From a plasmid, in sequence record NZ_CP096967.1: a stretch of DNA of 39,376 nt. One strand, 5' to 3'. The translations under genes were made by a program, and so were the position numbers. Of this stretch, positions 1 to 39,371 are shown one piece after another. The stretch's first letter is position 1. The number at the start of each line of letters is the position of its first letter. The notes below the pieces were generated by a model, which ran no database searches, was not told the DNA's origin, and saw only the letters and a list, made by a program, of their open reading frames with translations.

Positions 1-2217
1 ATGAAAAAGAAAAGTGAATTTGAAGCTCCTTATATTGGTATTGAAACAATAGACAATACTCCTATATTCTATAACCGAAGGGGCGACTATTCTGTTATCA
101 TTAAATGTGAAAATCCTATAATACAGTATTCAGCAGATATGGATGCTTACTATGATTTTCACCACTTATTTACTAATATCCTCAAAGTATTAGGAACTGG
201 ATATACAATACAAAAACAGGATATTCTATGTAAAAAATCATTTTTACCACCCCAGAATAGGAAGAACGACTATTTATCAAATCGTTATTTTGAACATTTT
301 AAAGGACGAATATATACTGATATTTCTACTTATCTTGTTATTACAGGAGAAGTAGAAAGGTCTAAATTCTTTTCTTTTGACCCTCGAAGGTTTGATACTT
401 TTATTAGAAACATCACAAAAGTATTAGGACTATTCGCTAACAGAGGAATAAGAGCTAAACTATTAAATGAAAATGAAATAGAAATATATATAAAAAGATT
501 TCTATCTATCAATTTCAATCAGCAAACAGTAAGCCTAAAAAATATCAAAGCAAGAGAAGAAAATCTTATAATTGGAGAAAAAAACGTACAGTGCATTTCT
601 CTTGTAGATATTGACGAAGTTAATTTTCCTTCTGTTATAAAACCATATAAAGAGGTCAATATTGGGCTAAGGTTTCCTGTTGACTTACTCTCTTTTTTGC
701 ATGATACACCAGGTATAGACACAATTATCTATAATCAAGTAATAAATATTCCAGACCAACGAAACGAAGCAAACAAATTAGAAGGCAAAAAGAAAAAACA
801 TAAAGGAATGCCTGACCCTGCAAATGATTTATGTGTAGAAGACATAGAACGAGTGCAGTCGGATATTGCCAGAGAAGGGCAAATGCTTGTATATGCACAT
901 TATAATATAATTCTTGCTGGTCTTGATGATATTAGTAAGGCTATCAACTATGTTGAAACATCTCTTTTTGATTGTGGCATTATTATTAATAAACAATGTT
1001 TCAACCAATTAGAATTATTCGAATGTGCACTGCCAGGAAACGCAATCAACCTAAACAGTTATGACAAATTTCTAACAACTTCCGATGCTGCAATTTGTCT
1101 TTTGTTCAAGGAAAAATTACAAGTAACAGAAAACAGCCCTTTTCTTACTTATTTTACAGACAGACAAGGATTGCCTGTTGGAATAGATATGTCCGGGAAA
1201 GAAGGTGAGAAAAAATATACAAATAACTCCAACTTCTTTGTTTTAGGTCCAAGTGGTTCTGGTAAGTCTTTCTATGTCAACTCCAAAGTAAGACAATGGG
1301 TTTTAGATAACACTGATATTGTATTGGTAGATACAGGGCATAGTTATTCAGGAATGTGCGAATACTATCATGGCAAATACATTACTTATTCTGAAAGCAA
1401 GCCTATATCTATGAATCCTTTCCGAATTACTGAAGAAGAGTATAATGTAGAAAAGAAAAACTTTCTTAAATCATTAATTTTCCTGATATGGAAAGGTGCA
1501 AATGGTGAGGTCAAAAAGCAAGAAGAAGAAATTATGGATATTACCATAGAAAAATACTATTCTTTCTACTTTCATCCCTTTAATGGTTATTCAGATGCGG
1601 AAAAAGAAGCCATACGTGAAAATTTACTACTCGAATTTCAAGTCAATGAAGAAGAATTTGAAAACGAAAGGGAAAAAGAAGAACGCAAGATACTTTCCGA
1701 AAAAATAGAGAAATTACAGCAACTAGTAGAAAAAGGAGAAGGCGGAGAAAAAACCAACGCAGAAAAAGCGATACAAAACATTCTCATCGAAAAAGGCTTT
1801 ACACGCCAAGAGCTTGATAATCCTGAAACTAGATTACTTTCTATAATAGAAAGACGAATCCAGAAGAAGGAAGATATATTGAAAGAAATAAAAGTTGAAA
1901 GCTTATCTTTTAACTCTTTCTACGAATTTTCCCTACGCATTATACCTATCATTTGCAAAGAGAACAAAATTGATTTTGATATTACTAACTATAAGTTTCT
2001 ATTAAAAAAATTCTATAAAGGAGGACAGTTAGAAAAAACTCTTAATGAGGATTTTGACACTTCCCTTTTTGAAGAACCCTTTATAGTTTTTGAAATTGAT
2101 GCAATTAAAGATGACCCTGAATTATTTCCAATAGTAACCTTAATTATTATGGACGTTTTTATTCAAAAAATGAGATTAAAAAAGAACAGAAAGGCATTAA
2201 TAATTGAAGAAGCATGG
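1..2217 (+). CDS. traG: Conjugative transfer ATPase TraG (VirB4-like), exon 1; the open frame runs on into the intron to a stop at 2277
   Basis: Walker A VLGPSGSGKSF. Length and position after traF fit the CTnDOT tra order. The frame ends ...LIIEEAW (Walker-B-like DEAW) just before the intron. Confidence 0.8.
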
Positions 2218-2847
2218 CTGCGACATGTAAGTCTTGTATATGATTGTTTAACATTCCATTCCACGCGCTGGAAATAGAACGATTAAACCTGTTGTTTCGT
2301 CAACAGTAGCCTATGGGAACGTGCGATAGTAAGCAATGAGGTCGTGCGATAGCAGAACCAACAATGAAGCCCTTCCGAAAGGAGAAGTCAGAACCGCGAG
2401 GGAACGACAACTGCCGTTAGTATCGAGTGGCAGGGGAGCTAGGCTGAATGGTATGAATAACGTAATGTGAACCGTTGATAAACGTCGTAACTTCGAATGA
2501 GCTGTTAATGATACTGGGCTCTAACCCAAAAGGGACGCAGTCGGATAACCTTCTTCATGCTAAGGTTACACGAACATGATGACTGCCGGCGGATAGACGG
2601 ATTCTAACCCATTCGTTTGTCATATACAAGAAACATGGTAAACCCGTATTTCTCCTGTATAACAGCAGGTAAGCAAACCGTAAGGAAAGCCGAATGAAAT
2701 GCGGGCAGAGGAATGTGGAAAAAGCGAATGCCATTCTGTAATGGAGCGGATAGAGGTTGAAACATCACCTCACACGAAAGTGGGCTGACTTCCGCAAGGT
2801 GACTTTTTACAAGAAACTTTTAGAACTTATTTAAAGGAGAAAAGCAA

Positions 2848-4494
2848 ATGAACGAAAGTAAGACATCGTGTGCATCTACTGACCAAAAGTGGAGCACTTG
2901 GGAAAGCATAGACTGGAACAAGTGCGAAATAGCGGTTAATAAGCTACAAGCACGTATTGTAAAAGCTCAGAAAGCAGGCAAACACGGCAGGGTGAAAGCT
3001 TTGCAGTGGATGCTGACGCATTCGTTTTACGCTAAAGCTTTAGCGGTAAAACGTGTTACATCGAACAGAGGCAGTAAAACTGCGGGTGTTGATAAAGCTG
3101 TGTGGGCAACTTCCAACAGTAAATTCAAGGCCATCAGCGAGCTAAGAAGAAGAGGCTATACCCCTCAACCTCTAAGAAGGATACATATTAAAAAGAGTAA
3201 CGGGAAGTTGCGTCCATTAGGGATTCCGACGATGAAAGACAGGGCAATGCAGGCATTGTATCTGCTCGCATTGGAACCTGTGTCAGAAACAACTGCTGAC
3301 AGCAACTCCTACGGATTCCGTAAAGAGAGAAGTGCTGGCGATGCAAGAGAACAATGTTTTTGCGTCCTTGCCAAGACAGCTTCTCCCGAATGGATTTTAG
3401 AAGGAGACATCAAAGGTTGTTTTGACCATATCAGTCATGACTGGCTGTTGGAAAATATTCCAATGGATAAAGTCATGCTGAAAAAATGGCTCAAATGCGG
3501 TTTCGTTTTCAACAAGGAATTATTCCCTACGGAAGAAGGAACTCCACAGGGTGGAATTATCTCGCCAACTCTTGCCAATATGACATTGGACGGTCTGCAA
3601 GCAATGCTCGCAGAAAAGTATTATAGGAAATCCGTTAAGGGACAAGTATATTATCCAAAGGTTCACATGGTTCGATACGCGGATGATTTTATCATTACGG
3701 GAAGGACTAGGGAAGCATTGGAGGAAATAAAGCCGTTAGTGGAGAACTTCCTTGAAAGTCGGGGACTTACTCTATCAGAAGAAAAGACAAAGATAACCCA
3801 TATTGAAGAGGGCTTTGATTTTCTCGGGTACAATATCCGTAAATACAATGGAATACTTCTAATAAAGCCGTCCAAAAAGAGTCTGAAGGGATTCATGGAG
3901 AAAATCAGAGGAATCATTGATTCCAATAAAGGTAGTAAACAGGAATCTCTTATAAGACTTTTGAATCCGGTAATAGTCGGTTGGGTGAATTACTACAAGA
4001 ATTGCGTGGCTTCGGACACATTCAGAAAAGCTGATTACTTGATATTTGAAAAGCTATGGCAATGGGCCAAGAGACGACATCCCAAGAAAGGTAAATATTG
4101 GATTGCCAGCAGATACTTTACACGAATAAAGAATCGTAACTGGTGCTTTGTGGCGAACTTCAAAAGGGGTAAAGCGGATGATAAGATTGCCCTCAAAAGA
4201 CTGTACGACACGAAAATCACCCGATACGTAAAAGTGAAAGGTGAAGCCAATCCTCTCGACCCTGAATGGAAAGAATATTTTGAAAAGCGCAAGACTTACA
4301 AGATGCTCAAGTCGCTTAATGGTAGAAAATCATTGCTGTATATGTGGGAAAAACAAAATCATTTATGCCCCATATGCGGAGAACCCATAGACAAAGAACA
4401 CTCGTGGGGAACTAATGAAAGAATTGTCAATGGAAAGAAAGTTAATTTCTTGGTACATGACAGTTGCAGAAGAAAAGTCATTCAACTTAAATAG
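2848..4494 (+). CDS. Group II intron reverse transcriptase/maturase (intron-encoded protein)
   Basis: RT domains 0-7 with YADDFII; maturase-like region (LIRLLNPVIVGWVNYY); Cys/His-rich C-terminus. Located in the intron's domain IV region. Confidence 0.9.
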   Translation: MNESKTSCASTDQKWSTWESIDWNKCEIAVNKLQARIVKAQKAGKHGRVKALQWMLTHSFYAKALAVKRVTSNRGSKTAGVDKAVWATSNSKFKAISELRRRGYTPQPLRRIHIKKSNGKLRPLGIPTMKDRAMQALYLLALEPVSETTADSNSYGFRKERSAGDAREQCFCVLAKTASPEWILEGDIKGCFDHISHDWLLENIPMDKVMLKKWLKCGFVFNKELFPTEEGTPQGGIISPTLANMTLDGLQAMLAEKYYRKSVKGQVYYPKVHMVRYADDFIITGRTREALEEIKPLVENFLESRGLTLSEEKTKITHIEEGFDFLGYNIRKYNGILLIKPSKKSLKGFMEKIRGIIDSNKGSKQESLIRLLNPVIVGWVNYYKNCVASDTFRKADYLIFEKLWQWAKRRHPKKGKYWIASRYFTRIKNRNWCFVANFKRGKADDKIALKRLYDTKITRYVKVKGEANPLDPEWKEYFEKRKTYKMLKSLNGRKSLLYMWEKQNHLCPICGEPIDKEHSWGTNERIVNGKKVNFLVHDSCRRKVIQLK

Positions 4495-4541
4495 ATGTAA
4501 CAATGAGCTGGTTTCTATTAGATAGAAATTTAAAGTTGCTT

Positions 4542-4575
4542 GAGCCGTATGATTGGAAACTTTCACGTACGGTTC
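4542..4575 (+). ncRNA. Group II intron domain V (catalytic hairpin)
   Basis: 34-nt match to the D5 consensus GAGCCGUAUG...CGUACGGUUC, including the AGC triad. Confidence 0.75.
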
Positions 4576-4616
4576 TTAGGGGGGAAAGGGGCAGTAATGC
4601 CCCCGACCTACCCGGC

Positions 4617-5240
4617 AAAGCCATAGCTAGCCCTATGATGGCTGGCTATATACTCTATTTGTATAAAACAGTTCGTAAATTTTGGGGTATGGCAATGGTT
4701 GTTACTCAAGAACTGGAGGACATAATTAGTAATCCTGTAGTCAAAAACTCTATAATCAGCAACTCCGATATTATATGCCTATTAGACCAAAGTAAATTTA
4801 TAGACAAATATCAAGAAATAGCAAATCTTTTATCCCTAACGGAAGTAAATCAAAAGCAAATATTTACCATAAATCAACTTCCCAATAAAGAAAACCGTAA
4901 TCGGTTTAATGAAGTATTTATAAAAAGAGGAAATTATGGAAATGTATTTGGAGTAGAGGTTTCTCTACACGAATATTTCACATTTACTACAGAACGAATT
5001 GAAAAAGATGCTGTTGGATATTATCATATCATTTATGGTAGTTTCCAAACAGGATTGGATAATTTTATAATAGACCTAAAATCTTCCAAATTAAAAAATA
5101 TGGATTGGGTTTTACAAGTCAATAAGGTACTAGGGTATCACTCCGATGATGGAAGCCTAAAAGATATACTTAACATCATAGGGGAACAACCATTATATAA
5201 GTATATCCTAGATAAATACAAATGGATTACAAACCGTTAA
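4617..5240 (+). CDS. traG: TraG (VirB4-like) exon 2, C-terminal part
   Basis: KAIASPMMAGYILYLYKTVRKFWGMAMVVTQELEDIIS... is the typical VirB4/TraG C-terminal region. In frame with exon 1 if the splice joins W|K. Confidence 0.7.
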   Translation, partial: KAIASPMMAGYILYLYKTVRKFWGMAMVVTQELEDIISNPVVKNSIISNSDIICLLDQSKFIDKYQEIANLLSLTEVNQKQIFTINQLPNKENRNRFNEVFIKRGNYGNVFGVEVSLHEYFTFTTERIEKDAVGYYHIIYGSFQTGLDNFIIDLKSSKLKNMDWVLQVNKVLGYHSDDGSLKDILNIIGEQPLYKYILDKYKWITNR

Positions 5241-24571: not shown

Positions 24572-24572
24572 A

Positions 24573-24685
24573 ATTGATACCTTTTCTGCCTGCACTGGAG
24601 AGAAACCGAGAAGGTATTTGATACCGTACTTTTCCGGGTTCTGCCCGGCATGGACGATAAGAGAACATTATTATGATACCAAAAA
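24573..24685 (+). repeat. Partial repeat copy B1 (right half of module M, lacking the 14-mer)
   Basis: Matches 12949-13060 of copy A, with the 14-mer deleted. Confidence 0.85.
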
Positions 24686-24694
24686 ATAAAAACC

Positions 24695-27342: not shown

Positions 27343-27368
27343 TTTTCAATATTACTTTAAAGAATTTG

Positions 27369-27527
27369 TGATACCGTACTTTTCGGAGTTCCGGCACTGA
27401 TGGGCAAACATGGCATGATGAAATGATACCGAATTATCATTCCTGGCACACCCTGCAGAACAACCTTTTGATACCAAATACAAAAAGCTGCCGGAAGCCG
27501 GACGCAAAGAATTGATACCATAAAACC
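27369..27527 (+). repeat. Partial repeat copy B2 (module G only, four TGATACC boxes)
   Basis: Matches 12521-12680 of copy A. Confidence 0.85.
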
Positions 27528-30293: not shown

Positions 30294-30416
30294 ATTTATA
30301 ACTTCACACCGCAAATATACAAACAAATATTCAATAAAAGAATATTTCAATATAATTTATTCATATAATAAATATACAAATATTATATATTCATATATTA
30401 TTTATATATATAATAT

Positions 30417-30670
30417 TTTTCCCTAAAGTTTTTTGGTATCATAATAATGTTCTCTTATCGTCCATGCCGGGCAGAACCCGGAAAAGTACGGTATCAAATA
30501 CCTTCCCGGTTTCTCTCCAGTGCAGGCAGAAAAGGTATCAATTAGATGCAATCCTTTTGCCGATGGGCGGTAGTTCTTGAATGGTGTCGGTGTCTTTTCT
30601 TTTATGATGCAGCCGTTTTCCTGTATTCAAGTATAGAGAGAAACGACACAAAGAACTTTAGGGAAAAGAA
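30417..30670 (-). repeat. Solo copy D of the ~250-bp module M, bounded by inverted 14-mers
   Basis: TTTTCCCTAAAGTT at 30417, its reverse complement at 30653-30666. The interior is identical to module M of the full copies. AT microsatellite on both sides. Confidence 0.85.
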
Positions 30671-31200: not shown

Positions 31201-31265
31201 ACGCAAATATATAAATTACTAAACACCCTCCCAAACAAAAGGGAAAAAAATACAATTAGATAAGT

Positions 31266-31770
31266 TTTTTTGGTATCATAATAATGTTCTCTTATCGTCC
31301 ATGCCGGGCAGAACCCGGAAAAGTACGGTATCAAATACCTTCCCGGTTTCTCTCCAGTGCAGGCAGAAAAGGTATCAATTAGATGCAATCCTTTTGCTGA
31401 TGGGCGATAGTTCCTGAATGGTGTCGGTATCGTTTCTTTTATGATGCAGCCGTTTTTCTGTATTCAGATATAGAGAGAAACGACACAAAGAACTTTAGGG
31501 AAAAGAAGATTCTTCGTGTTGCTCTTTCTGGAAGTGGAGTATATTAATCATATATTATATGTTTATAGGTTCATATATTATATATTCATATATTATTTAT
31601 ATATATAATATGGTATTTTGTTCCTGTTCTTTTTCCCTAATGTTTTATGGTATCAATTTTTTGCGTCCGGCTTCCGACTGCTTTTTGTATTTGGTATCAA
31701 AAAGGCGTTCTGCAGGGTGTACCAGGAATGATAATTCGGTATCAATTTCTTTCCCTACAGTATATCAAAA
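31266..31770 (-). repeat. Composite repeat copy C (M - microsatellite - G; lacks module P and has a 56-bp deletion between two GGTATCA repeats)
   Basis: Reverse-complement match to copy A at 12512-13060. Confidence 0.9.
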
Positions 31771-35119: not shown

Positions 35120-35199
35120 AAAAAAATGATTAATGAATTAATACTGAAAAATAGCCCTAACAGTTGGCTACGAAATGGATTTAAGAAGCAATGTTTCAT

Positions 35200-35925
35200 G
35201 ATTTTGTTTGCTGTTCTTTATACTGGCAGCCAAACCAGCTTTAAAGGTTTGTTTATCTCTTTATTTTCAATACTCAAAGATAGTGATTTTCTATAAATGT
35301 CGCAAATAATAGGACAATTATTTTTGTTAAAAATAGTTTTAGGCTTATAGAGTGCCGAAGTTTTATTTTTCCCTAAAGTTTTTTGGTATCATAATAATGT
35401 TCTCTTATCGTCCATGCCGGGCAGAACCCGGAAAAGTACGGTATCAAATACCTTCCCGGTTTCTCTCCAGTGCTGATAGAAAAGGTATCAATTAGGTACA
35501 ATCCTTTTGCCGATGGGCGGCAGTTCCTGAATGGTGTCGGTGTCTTTTCTTTTATGATGCAGCCGTTTTCCTGTATTCAGGTATAGAGAGAAACGACACA
35601 AGGAACTTTAGGGAAAAGAAGATTCTTCGTGTTGCTCTTTCTGGAAGTGGAGTATATTAATCACATATTATATATTGTTTATTTATATATTATATATTCA
35701 TATATTATTTATATATATAATATGGTATTCTGTTCCTGTTCTTTTCCCCTAATGTTTTATGGTATCAATTCTTTGCGTCCGGCTTCCGGCAGCTTTTTGT
35801 ATTTGGTATCAAAAGGTTGTTCTGTAGGGTGTGCCAGGAATGATAATTCGGTATCATTTCATCATGCCATGTTTGCCCATCAGTGCCGGAACTCCGAAAA
35901 GTACGGTATCAATTTCTTTCCCTAT
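35200..35925 (-). repeat. Composite repeat, full copy E (P - M - microsatellite - G), inverted relative to copy A
   Basis: Reverse-complement match to copy A at 12512-13241. Confidence 0.9.
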
Positions 35926-36221: not shown

Positions 36222-37232
36222 TTAAGCAACCTTTGTATTTTTCTCTTCTTCAACTTCTTCCACATCTAGCCTTATATTTAGATGCTGGGCTATGAATTTA
36301 CTACCTTTAATAGCATCTGCCAATACAGTAAATAAAAATTTAGGTTCTTCTTTTATTGCTTTGCACCATGATTTTAAATAAGCCGCATTTTCTTCTCTGA
36401 CGGTTACAGAAATACCCAAATATACACCAGACAAAGCCGATATTAATTCTGCTACAAGTTCTTCACGCCCATAATTGAATTTATCATTTTCATAAAATCC
36501 TTTTCGATTTAGTCTATTTTTAACACCTGTACTATGTCCCATTTCATGTAATTCTGTACCATAAAAACTTTCTCCGTCCTTAAATTGGCTCTTTAAAGGT
36601 AAAGTAATGCTATCATTTGATATTGAATAAAACGCACTATCACTAGAAACCGTTTGAATAGGACATACCCAATTTTGATTCTTATTCATTTCATCAAGTA
36701 TTGGATTTACATACATTTCTTTCTCTTCTTGTGGCTGTTCCTCTCCTGAAAATTTAGCCTTTAATATATCCCATCTATTGGGATATTTTTCCGCAAAGTT
36801 TGTTTGGTCTAAATTAAAAACTTGGAAATATTTTGTATAAGCTGCTAAACGGTATTCTTTTTGTTCTTCTTCCGATAATTTGTTATATTCATCATATGAA
36901 ATTTTTTCATTTGTCTGACGATGATAAGCACAAAATAATGTATAATAAACAGGAAAAGCAACAGCACCTTTTAGAACATTAATACCTTCGTTTCGTGCTT
37001 GATTGAATGTCAAAAAAACAGGAGTTTGATAATTATATTTTTCACACAAAAAATAAAGTAAAAAAGCGTTTCCACCACTATAAGTACGACCTGTTAAATT
37101 TTGTGGTAAAAAGTTCTGTTTAGAGTTGACTTTAGAGAACCAAGGTTTTTGCCAATTCATAGACAAACTTTCAATTTTTTCAACCATAAGGTTTACAAAC
37201 TTCTCTGCATTTTTATCAAAAGTAGATTTCAT
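36222..37232 (-). CDS. ardC: ArdC-like antirestriction protein (N-terminal ssDNA-binding domain plus C-terminal zincin)
   Basis: C-terminal metalloprotease motif GTELHEMGHSTG; size and architecture match ArdC. Confidence 0.65.
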   Translation of the reverse strand: MKSTFDKNAEKFVNLMVEKIESLSMNWQKPWFSKVNSKQNFLPQNLTGRTYSGGNAFLLYFLCEKYNYQTPVFLTFNQARNEGINVLKGAVAFPVYYTLFCAYHRQTNEKISYDEYNKLSEEEQKEYRLAAYTKYFQVFNLDQTNFAEKYPNRWDILKAKFSGEEQPQEEKEMYVNPILDEMNKNQNWVCPIQTVSSDSAFYSISNDSITLPLKSQFKDGESFYGTELHEMGHSTGVKNRLNRKGFYENDKFNYGREELVAELISALSGVYLGISVTVREENAAYLKSWCKAIKEEPKFLFTVLADAIKGSKFIAQHLNIRLDVEEVEEEKNTKVA

Positions 37233-37233
37233 A

Positions 37234-37372
37234 ATTTTGTTTGCTGTTCTTTATACTGGCAGCCAAACCAGCTTTAAAGTTTATTTATCTCTTTATTTTC
37301 AATACTCAAAGATAGTAATTTTCTATAAATGTCGCAAATAATAAGACAATTATTTTTGTTAAAAATAGTTTA
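37234..37372 (-). repeat. Solo copy F of promoter/leader module P, immediately upstream of ardC
   Basis: Matches 13086-13241 (reverse complement) and 35200-35360. Followed by the 14-mer at 37401. Confidence 0.85.
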
Positions 37373-38755: not shown

Positions 38756-39070
38756 ATGAAAAAGTTTTTTTCAAAAATTGCTCAAAGAGCATTCGCTTTA
38801 GCCATTAGCATAATGGTAGTAACTAACACTTTTGCACAAGGTGCTGCGGGAATTGATGCAGCTAGTTCTGAACTTGCAACCTACATGGACCCCCTAGGAA
38901 ACATGATGATGATACTAGGAGGTCTAGTAGGATTAGTTGGAGCAGTGCGAGTTTATTTAAAATGGAACTCTGGTGACCAAGATGTACAAAAGGCTGTTAT
39001 GGGCTGGATGGGGTCATGTATCTTTCTGGTTGTATCAGGTGTTGTCGTAAAAGCATTCTTCGGAATCTAA
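38756..39070 (+). CDS. traE: TraE (VirB2-like pilin-type protein)
   Basis: Signal peptide plus two hydrophobic segments, 104 aa; position before traF-traG. Confidence 0.6.
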   Translation: MKKFFSKIAQRAFALAISIMVVTNTFAQGAAGIDAASSELATYMDPLGNMMMILGGLVGLVGAVRVYLKWNSGDQDVQKAVMGWMGSCIFLVVSGVVVKAFFGI

Positions 39071-39071
39071 T

Positions 39072-39371
39072 ATGTCGAAAGAGTATCCAAGTTACAATGT
39101 ATATAAGGGGCTACAAAAGCCCCTTATTTTCAAAGGATTTAAAGGCAAGTTCATATATATCGGTGGAGCTTGTATTATTAGTGCTTTACTTTTATGTGCT
39201 ATTGTTTCTACTCTGGCTTCTTTTATGTGGGGAGGTATAACTCTTGTAATAGTTATGTTTGGAGGGTTAGGAATAACATCGCAATTACAAAGAAAAGGGC
39301 TTCACAGGAAAGATAAACGAAAAGGCATATATATAGTATCACGCACTTTTATAAGAGATAGAAAAAAATAA
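39072..39371 (+). CDS. traF: TraF (VirB3-like)
   Basis: 99 aa with two TM helices. Directly followed, across the window ends, by traG. Confidence 0.55.
   Translation: MSKEYPSYNVYKGLQKPLIFKGFKGKFIYIGGACIISALLLCAIVSTLASFMWGGITLVIVMFGGLGITSQLQRKGLHRKDKRKGIYIVSRTFIRDRKK

Follow-up and report, generated by a model that had tools for sequence, protein, structure and literature searches.

A IIB-like group II intron with paired noncanonical termini interrupts the ATPase gene traG of a Bacteroidales plasmid

The plasmid sequence NZ_CP096967.1 (39,376 nucleotides [nt]), analyzed over its whole length and called the window here, carries a group II intron in traG, which codes for a VirB4-type ATPase. 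The intron occupies positions 2218 to 4616 (2,399 nt) and is inserted between the TGG codon of Trp739 and the Lys codon that follows it. It begins with C and has G as its penultimate nucleotide, and these odd bases represent a real, lineage-wide paired change rather than damage. The explanation that best accounts for the whole, which we regard as very probable from the sequence comparisons, is that of an intact, recently mobile IIB-like intron whose termini contact has most likely been rebuilt as a C-G or U.G pair and whose splicing would gate plasmid transfer.

The open reading frame (ORF) that starts traG (1 to 2277, 758 amino acids [aa]) runs through LIIEEAW, continues with 19 unrelated codons and ends at TAG (2275 to 2277), and the frame resumes downstream as KAIASPMMAGY. 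A preliminary description of this DNA had read the gene in this way, and all of these elements are in the sequence where it placed them. The Pfam profile P-loop_TraG matches both halves of the gene, exon 2 beginning at profile position 261, and the ligated exons encode a 946-aa VirB4-type ATPase, TraG.

1 to 2217, plus strand: traG exon 1, 739 codons, ending LIIEEAW with TGG at 2215-2217 (Pfam P-loop_TraG, E=2e-67).
2218 to 4616, plus strand: group II intron, 2,399 nt, IIB-like, termini 5'-CUGCG...GC-3' (Rfam, empty sites, six-domain fold).
4617 to 5240, plus strand: traG exon 2, 207 codons and stop, starting KAIASPMMAGY (P-loop_TraG profile positions 261-409 of 413).

The boundaries were established by comparison with uninterrupted genes (a slash marks the joint in what follows). 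Intron-less TraG proteins are continuous over the joint (...RKALIIEEAWKAIASPMMAGY), and the Trp preceding it is conserved in every aligned intron-less TraG homolog. The empty site was found in at least 23 PLSDB plasmids, in which the 100 nt from each side of the intron form a contiguous 200-nt match with at least 99% identity. In NZ_CP032820.1 it reads GAAGAAGCATGG/AAAGCCATAGCT, and the traG gene of that plasmid (2,841 nt) differs from the joined exons of the window at 12 positions. In NZ_CP081911.1, window positions 1 to 2217 are matched at 100%, and the next plasmid base aligns to window position 4617. The exact DNA joint of the intron-less plasmids is GCATGG/AAAGCC, and a target-site duplication is absent. 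Because the empty site is exact and Trp has the single codon TGG, the boundaries are fixed to the nucleotide; splice sites moved by -1 or +1 nt were rejected on the same two grounds. The preliminary description had proposed that a group II intron splits a VirB4-like traG at EEAW/K, and both the empty sites and the intron-less proteins bear it out. Of the checks it had suggested, the alignment with intron-less traG homologs upheld this joint, and the covariance-model search yielded the ribozyme matches described below. The pairings between exon-binding sites (EBS) and intron-binding sites (IBS), EBS1-IBS1 and EBS2-IBS2, were assigned as well.

In the Rfam search, at curated thresholds, a segment of domain 1 (D1) at 2288-2438 matched RF02012 with 87 bits, and D5-D6 at 4540-4616 matched RF00029 with 61.7 bits. 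The position of D5 and the intron limits given in the preliminary description (4542-4575 within 2218-4616) agree with RF00029 and with the empty site, respectively. A consensus fold with all six domains was obtained with RNAalifold from 46 family members. An intron-encoded protein (IEP) lies in D4, and J2/3 denotes the segment between D2 and D3.

2206 to 2217, plus strand: IBS2 (GAAG, 2206-2209) and IBS1 (GCAUGG, 2212-2217), both on the 5' exon side; they match EBS2 and EBS1 by base complementarity, with covariation at other target sites.
2218 to 2222, plus strand: 5' motif CUGCG (canonical GUGYG), C2218 being intron position 1, aligned column for column with GUGCG or GUGUG of 47 distinct relatives.
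2224 to 2637, plus strand: D1, closing stem CAUG 2224-2227 with CAUG 2634-2637 (RNAalifold, cmscan).
2352 to 2353, plus strand: epsilon', G2352 and C2353, partners of intron positions 4 and 3 (C2221 and G2220), with a compensatory change in the clade.
2489 to 2494, plus strand: EBS2 loop AACUUC, of which CUUC (2491-2494) pairs with GAAG at 2206-2209; covaries with exon positions -12 to -7.
2554 to 2560, plus strand: EBS1 loop UUCAUGC, EBS1 being UCAUGC (2555-2560); pairs with IBS1 GCAUGG at 2212-2217 and covaries with it.
2643 to 2705, plus strand: D2 (RNAalifold).
2706 to 2714, plus strand: J2/3, CAGAGGAAU, in which gamma G2710 pairs with C4616; clade-specific changes at 2706 and 2708.
2715 to 2795, plus strand: D3 (RNAalifold).
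2848 to 4494, plus strand: IEP, 548 aa, in D4, with RVT_N, RVT_1 and GIIM maturase domains (Pfam, 1e-31, 6e-45 and 9e-27).
4542 to 4575, plus strand: D5, AGC triad at 4543-4545, tandem U.U in the upper helix at 4553:4562 and 4554:4561 (RF00029 and two plastid D5 models, pair tables).
4579 to 4613, plus strand: D6, with bulged branch-point A4610, the 7th nt from the 3' end (RF00029 alignment, RNAalifold).
4615 to 4616, plus strand: 3'-terminal GC (canonical AY), G4615 being penultimate; G in 48/48 nonchimeric clade copies, A in 47/47 distinct canonical relatives.

The tertiary and exon contacts are supported by covariation. EBS1 covaries with IBS1 over at least 10 target sites (for example GAAUUU with AAGUUC, UUUGAU with AUCAAA, and GUAUUG with CAGUAC), and in a relative at another site the EBS2 loop is AACAUC with GAUGUU in the exon. 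The gamma-gamma' pair, G2710:C4616 in the window, covaries perfectly: among 79 distinct sequences, 60 have G:C and 19 have A:U. In epsilon-epsilon', a compensation is found inside the clade, C4:G2352 in the window subtype versus U4:A2352 in the CUGUG subtype, and G3:C2353 is invariant (79/79). EBS3, the element of the D1 coordination loop by which IIB introns recognize the 3' exon, was sought column by column as the complement of that exon's first base. It did not emerge cleanly, the best candidate being U2594 opposite A4617, with a match in 69% of the sequences. A 5'-extended intron was also considered, since the RF02012 match begins no earlier than 2288 and two GUGCG motifs follow, at 2321 and 2344. 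It was rejected, as relatives start with GUGCG or GUGUG at the column of C2218, and it is also ruled out by the D1 closing stem, which begins at 2224, and by the pairing of intron positions 3-4 with epsilon'. The two internal GTGCG motifs are paired strands of a conserved D1 hairpin within the RF02012 match, and neither is a splice site; the preliminary description had rightly discounted the one at 2321 as a 5' end.

The best relative of the IEP among solved structures is chain C of 6ME0 (E=2e-188, residues 5-517), which we take to be the T.el4h group IIB intron ribonucleoprotein of Thermosynechococcus. An endonuclease (En/HNH) domain was undetected in the IEP with Pfam at E<=0.01. As to the IIB type, an EBS2 is present, and the IEP is closest to the protein of the IIB intron T.el4h. 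The terminal consensus of group II introns, 5'-GUGYG...AY-3', is departed from at position 1 and at the penultimate position only, whereas positions 2-5 and the last nucleotide fit. The element is a bona fide group II intron, IIB-like, that fails only the terminal consensus.

To place these termini, relatives were collected in two ways. A scan with the IEP, using one genome per species, gave 80 loci with proteins 60-100% identical, and contigs carrying the protein cluster P0002 (see below) added six. A pattern scan of metagenomes started at intron position 2, so that it was blind to position 1; it returned at least 120 stretches, at least 38 of them real introns, and counts built on it are samples, not totals. 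From the IEP scan and the P0002 contigs, 16 copies in addition to the window start with CUGYGAC (one with UUGUGAC) and end with ...CCUACCCGGC, all of them in traG. They represent 15 loci, the 5' end being missing from one, and a second, inverted partial copy in locus L003 was left out of the count. Their hosts are Phocaeicola, Bacteroides, Parabacteroides, Prevotella, Dysgonomonas and an uncultured Porphyromonadaceae bacterium. All other relatives with resolved ends start with GUGCGA or GUGUGA and finish with ...GAC or ...GAU, including canonical introns at the same EEAW/K site. There are four of these, L011, L046, L072 and L017, the last represented by its 3' junction only and outside the tree.

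Among the metagenome matches listed, which comprise at least 38 intron copies, position 1 is always C or T, never G or A, and the 3' end is ...GGC wherever present. The single exception is L127, probably a chimera: its intron is of the window type, but the 3' end, ...CUCGAC, is that of another, canonical intron, and the flank beyond it is not traG. In the de-duplicated ribozyme alignment (79 distinct sequences), the bases at position 1 and the penultimate position are G and A in 47, C and G in 28, and U and G in 4, and mixed states do not occur. The clade with C or U at position 1 and penultimate G is monophyletic and nested in the tree among canonical introns. It totals at least 49 copies, with flanks that could be classified in 41, giving 33 traG exon contexts (differing by more than 5%). 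The ends CUGCGAC and CCCGGC, which the preliminary description had flagged as odd, are thus both present and genuine, clade-wide. On the same branch, J2/3 changed from UAUAGG to CAGAGG (2706-2711), and the G-C and G.U pairs of the D5 upper helix gave way to the tandem U.U in 31 of 32 distinct clade members. L009 has C1 and the penultimate G yet keeps the ancestral forms of J2/3 and D5. Three positions that are invariant in relatives, 2352, 2505 and 2706, were altered on the clade branch.

Among the metagenome contigs, both L127 and L102 join a window-type intron to non-traG 3' flanks and are probably assembly chimeras or recombinants. In the 2,589-nt contig L070, an intron 3' end ...CCCGAU abuts an intron 5' end, GUGUGACCUG, at about position 2481, either an assembler artifact at a repeat or a tandem copy. 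The canonical relatives also occupy conserved sites in other conserved genes. Many follow a Trp codon TGG in the context PW/[RK]PS[DE]LEQR (L021, L029-L034, L036-L044, L048-L054, L059, L060, L064), and others lie at LNLNKTW/...QKQGDFF (L067-L079) or at VYNKF/ (L045, L073). Their EBS1 and EBS2 are retuned per site, and the host genes may be those of conjugative elements. The intron family may specialize on conserved motifs of mobile-element genes.

We then considered the activity of the lineage. Within the clade, the ratio of nonsynonymous to synonymous substitution (dN/dS) of the IEP is 0.05-0.07 at a synonymous divergence (dS) of 1.2-2.9. It follows from these values that the unusual ends have persisted over long divergence under selection for a working IEP. 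The full-length IEP ORF is present in 47 of 49 clade copies, and the flanking traG exons are mostly open. The window subtype (CUGCG) comprises at least 14 copies with 0-8 differences over 2,399 nt, and the exact intron sequence of the window occurs in at least seven other contigs, one of which also has a non-traG 3' flank. The traG alleles hosting copies of this subtype are mostly about 60-97% identical to one another, and the allele of the window was also found intron-less. These comparisons indicate that the window intron has been recently mobile and that its lineage is old and functional. In three loci (L081, L082 and L084), the traG allele of the window (exons 99.3% identical) carries a CUGUG-subtype intron that is about 92% identical, a pattern which implies that the same plasmid gene was invaded, or its intron replaced, at least twice.

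The window subtype is also distinctive at the last base of the 5' exon (position -1). U2555 of its EBS1 lies opposite G at this position, forming a wobble pair, and most clade members have C instead of U. The exon base is polymorphic (G, T or A) only beside the window subtype, with its U in EBS1. The codon reads TGG in the window and eight other copies, TGT in L001, L102, L140, L174 and L181, and TGA in L127, L182 and L199. In traG, TGT codes for Cys and TGA is a stop, and TGA perfectly complements EBS1. Bases other than G were found in at least 5 exon contexts of the window subtype versus none of about 20 contexts of the other subtypes, and two CUGCG copies with C at 2555 (L092 and L100) both have TGG. 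Such changes may have arisen through reverse transcriptase (RT) errors on crossing the RNA/DNA junction in retrohoming, or they may reflect selection on the intron rather than on the host gene; both are possible.

What the changed termini mean for splicing depends on the contact that they normally form. This contact between the first and penultimate nucleotides is known mainly through mutagenesis of one yeast intron, and mutants of G1 in yeast aI5gamma splice accurately at a lower rate. In the passages of PMC4238363 and PMC3669008 that cite Chanfreau and Jacquier (1993), it is a non-Watson-Crick contact made after lariat formation that matters in the second splicing step. RmInt1 has G1, and few substitutions harm it as much as a penultimate G (PMC4238363). 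In the window lineage, the conserved first G has become C, and sometimes U, and the conserved penultimate A has become G; a G.A contact needed for the second step would thereby be rebuilt as a C-G or U.G pair. Since every penultimate G in this lineage goes with C or U at position 1, both of which can pair with G, replacement of the tertiary contact by such a pair is the most likely interpretation of the alignment. A fuller version describes a class of introns with alternative termini in which J2/3 and the D5 upper helix were remodeled alongside the contact, mobility stayed high, and the window subtype, on entering further traG alleles, may turn the G that ends the 5' exon into A or T; we put it forward tentatively, at somewhat short of an even chance. 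A successful, widespread lineage that swaps both contact partners shows how much change the catalytic core can bear at near-universal bases, and it offers a ready means of studying the second splicing step, whose mechanism is related to that of spliceosomal 3' splice-site choice. Intron finders anchored on GUGYG...AY will misplace or miss such introns.

The position of the intron suggests a consequence for conjugation. The intron has very probably entered the Walker B codon block LIIEEAW/K of traG by retrohoming, which left no target duplication, the site being recognized through EBS1 UCAUGC with IBS1 GCAUGG and EBS2 CUUC with IBS2 GAAG. Its D5, its branch-point A and its epsilon and gamma contacts are of the normal kind. 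Translation of unspliced mRNA would stop 19 codons into the intron and so truncate TraG right behind the Walker B block LIIEE(AW), and spliced mRNA would be the sole source of the full-length protein. Because full-length TraG comes only from ligated exons, transfer of the plasmid is expected to be gated by intron splicing, as the preliminary description had soundly deduced. The plasmid family is common among Bacteroidales of the human gut, the interrupted gene codes for its secretion ATPase, and the efficiency of splicing may therefore govern how fast these plasmids transfer. Public assemblies carry the split traG as two or three separate proteins. One of the ORFs behind this is an artifact of the D5/D6 region:

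4503 to 5240, plus strand: artifactual ORF of 245 aa, from an intron ATG at 4503 through D5/D6 into exon 2 (ORF list).

Its first 38 residues are translated D5/D6. Its counterpart in the CUGUG subtype is a called protein, cluster P0002, which alone has 247 member sequences in public collections.

Several other explanations of the window were weighed. The preliminary description had allowed for boundaries shifted by a few nucleotides. One such case would have G2217 as the first intron nucleotide and the 3' site after G4615, which would give EEAC-K. An upstream shift of 1 nt at both ends would preserve the frame, provide the intron with a G start and silence the G/T/A polymorphism at the positions equivalent to 2217. 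However, the empty-site DNA reads GCATGG/AAAGCC, Trp is conserved in all of the aligned intron-less homologs, and canonical relatives at the same site read TGG/GUGCG. In addition, the gamma-gamma' covariation makes C4616 the final intron nucleotide, and epsilon-epsilon' sets intron positions 3-4 at 2220-2221. The exact empty site and the in-register covariation of epsilon-epsilon', gamma-gamma' and EBS1-IBS1 exclude the shifted boundaries, to which we give practically no credence. Scarcely more probable is that TraG is made without splicing, as two reassembling pieces, namely residues 1-739 with a 19-residue tail and the 245-aa product from 4503. An in-frame ATG nine bases past the IEP stop does open a frame through D5/D6 into exon 2, and the equivalent frame is open in the other subtype too. 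Nevertheless, 38 stop-free codons are expected by chance about 1 time in 6 by our estimate, the break falls within the Walker B block, the stretch from 4503 is constrained as D5/D6 RNA and not as protein, and nothing else speaks for two pieces. The preliminary description had also raised the idea that the intron is splicing impaired. A dead intron, with traG here effectively a pseudogene, would be in line with unusual terminal bases at two positions that rank among the best conserved in introns of this kind, with the two U.U mismatches in D5, with an EBS1 U facing exon position -1, and with same-subtype sister copies that adjoin TGT or TGA codons. The population evidence contradicts it: the same termini are fixed across an old clade with dS of more than 1 and an IEP under purifying selection (dN/dS about 0.06), and the traG exons and the remaining tra operon are intact and 99.96-100% identical to those of an intron-less plasmid. 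Since retromobility needs excised intron RNA, and identical copies, found in at least seven other contigs, sit in diverged traG alleles, we consider impaired splicing quite improbable.

The most serious competitor to a rebuilt contact is that C1 and the penultimate G are tolerated, perhaps slightly harmful hitchhikers in one successful lineage, with the maturase or changes elsewhere in the core (J2/3, D5) restoring splicing. Several observations weigh against the rebuilt contact or complicate it. The changes from G1 to C and from A to G lie on one branch and represent a single evolutionary event, so that they could be hitchhiking. On that branch, 2352, 2505 and 2706, invariant in relatives, changed as well, as did J2/3 and the D5 upper helix, and compensation, if any, may extend beyond a simple two-base pair. 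L009, with C1 and the penultimate G but the ancestral J2/3, shows that the changes are separable. Position 1 changed from C to U at no fewer than three places in the tree (3-4 events), but transitions are the commonest type of mutation, and the absence of A and G among so few events counts for little. The contact tolerates deviation, given that RmInt1 is functional although it combines G1 with a penultimate C (PMC4238363). Moreover, about 40% of the exon contexts of the window subtype end in TGT or TGA, so some of the host traG genes are mutant even with accurate splicing. On the other side, position 1 is only C or U, both G pairing, and the penultimate G is unvarying in 48 nonchimeric copies; in an independent intron, UHB.I2, U1 and a penultimate G occur together (PMC7923331); where position 1 is G, a G at the penultimate position ranks among the most harmful changes (PMC4238363); and the change at 2352 is accounted for by epsilon-epsilon'. 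We therefore regard hitchhiking as the less likely account, though one to be taken seriously, and a C-G or U.G contact as the preferred one.

The window intron can be set beside known systems. Ll.LtrB belongs to the IIA introns, has canonical termini, encodes an IEP with an En domain and is inserted in a relaxase gene. In conjugative elements of Lactococcus lactis (pRS01 and the sex factor), its splicing from the relaxase gene ltrB controls transfer (PMC1874635, PMC7293003, PMC6003770). The two are alike as mobile group II introns that carry an RT/maturase ORF and interrupt a gene on which the conjugation of their host element depends. Unlike Ll.LtrB, however, the window intron is IIB-like, lies in the VirB4-type ATPase gene traG of a Bacteroidales plasmid, has the ends C1...GC, and has no detected En domain. 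T.el4h has the closest solved IEP and the same IIB-type organization, with EBS1, EBS2 and gamma in J2/3, but host and target of the window intron differ. The ends of T.el4h are the canonical GUGYG...AY. The nearest comparison is with the canonical sisters L011 (Maribellus), L046 (Flavobacterium), L072 (Pedobacter) and L017 (Sphingobacterium), which share the traG site and the EBS1/EBS2 logic and have IEPs 60-75% identical. They differ in their GUGCG start (as seen in L011, L046 and L072), AC or AU end, J2/3 sequence UAUAGG and fully paired D5 upper helix. U12-type AT-AC introns of the spliceosomal kind are a minority class in which both terminal consensus nucleotides change together. They offer an analogy only and imply no membership, being spliceosomal and having the first and last nucleotides as partners rather than the first and penultimate ones.

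Two natural introns resemble the window lineage at their ends. RmInt1 of Sinorhizobium meliloti (IIB3) is an efficient mobile intron that ends with CC (PMC4238363). It is likewise off the AY rule at the penultimate position, but it keeps G1, unlike the window intron, in which both contact partners are changed. UHB.I2, a IIB intron associated with an integron in a hypersaline metagenome, has the boundaries 5'-UUGCG..GU-3', given only as a deviation from the consensus (PMC7923331). It shares U1 and a penultimate G with the U1 variants of the window clade, but it is a single intron in an unrelated setting. When the literature was searched for group II introns that start with CUGCG or CUGUG, UUGCG cases alone came up, with no report of a C start, and no description of a lineage with C1 and a penultimate G was found in our literature searches. 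For a group II intron in Bacteroides traG, the search gave only gene-list mentions and a remark that group II intron insertions break synteny in one Bacteroides mobile-element family. A gene list of B. thetaiotaomicron shows ltrA, a group II intron RT gene, adjoining traG (PMC10434189), and the arrangement of an intron in traG is therefore not new as such.

The window is a closed circle opened at the traG start codon, as its last 383 nt (38994-39376) match, without a single difference, the stretch of equal length that immediately precedes traG in NZ_CP032820.1. In a whole-plasmid alignment, it is collinear, with 99.96-100% identity, with the intron-less pBF9343-type conjugative plasmid NZ_CP081911.1 of Phocaeicola vulgatus (35,580 bp). 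Two insertions separate them, the group II intron and a 1.39-kb IS256-family element. The latter, at 15622-17012, encodes a Mutator/IS256-family transposase of 404 aa (15727-16941, minus strand); it is flanked by an 8-nt target duplication and sits at the 3' end of a zeta-toxin family gene. The secondary matches of the plasmid-to-plasmid alignment also revealed dispersed repeats of 115-740 nt in the plasmid backbone, 90-99% identical and in both orientations.

12512-13251, 24572-24686, 27359-27526, 30414-30670, 31262-31749, 35194-35921 and 37224-37371, both orientations: dispersed backbone repeats.

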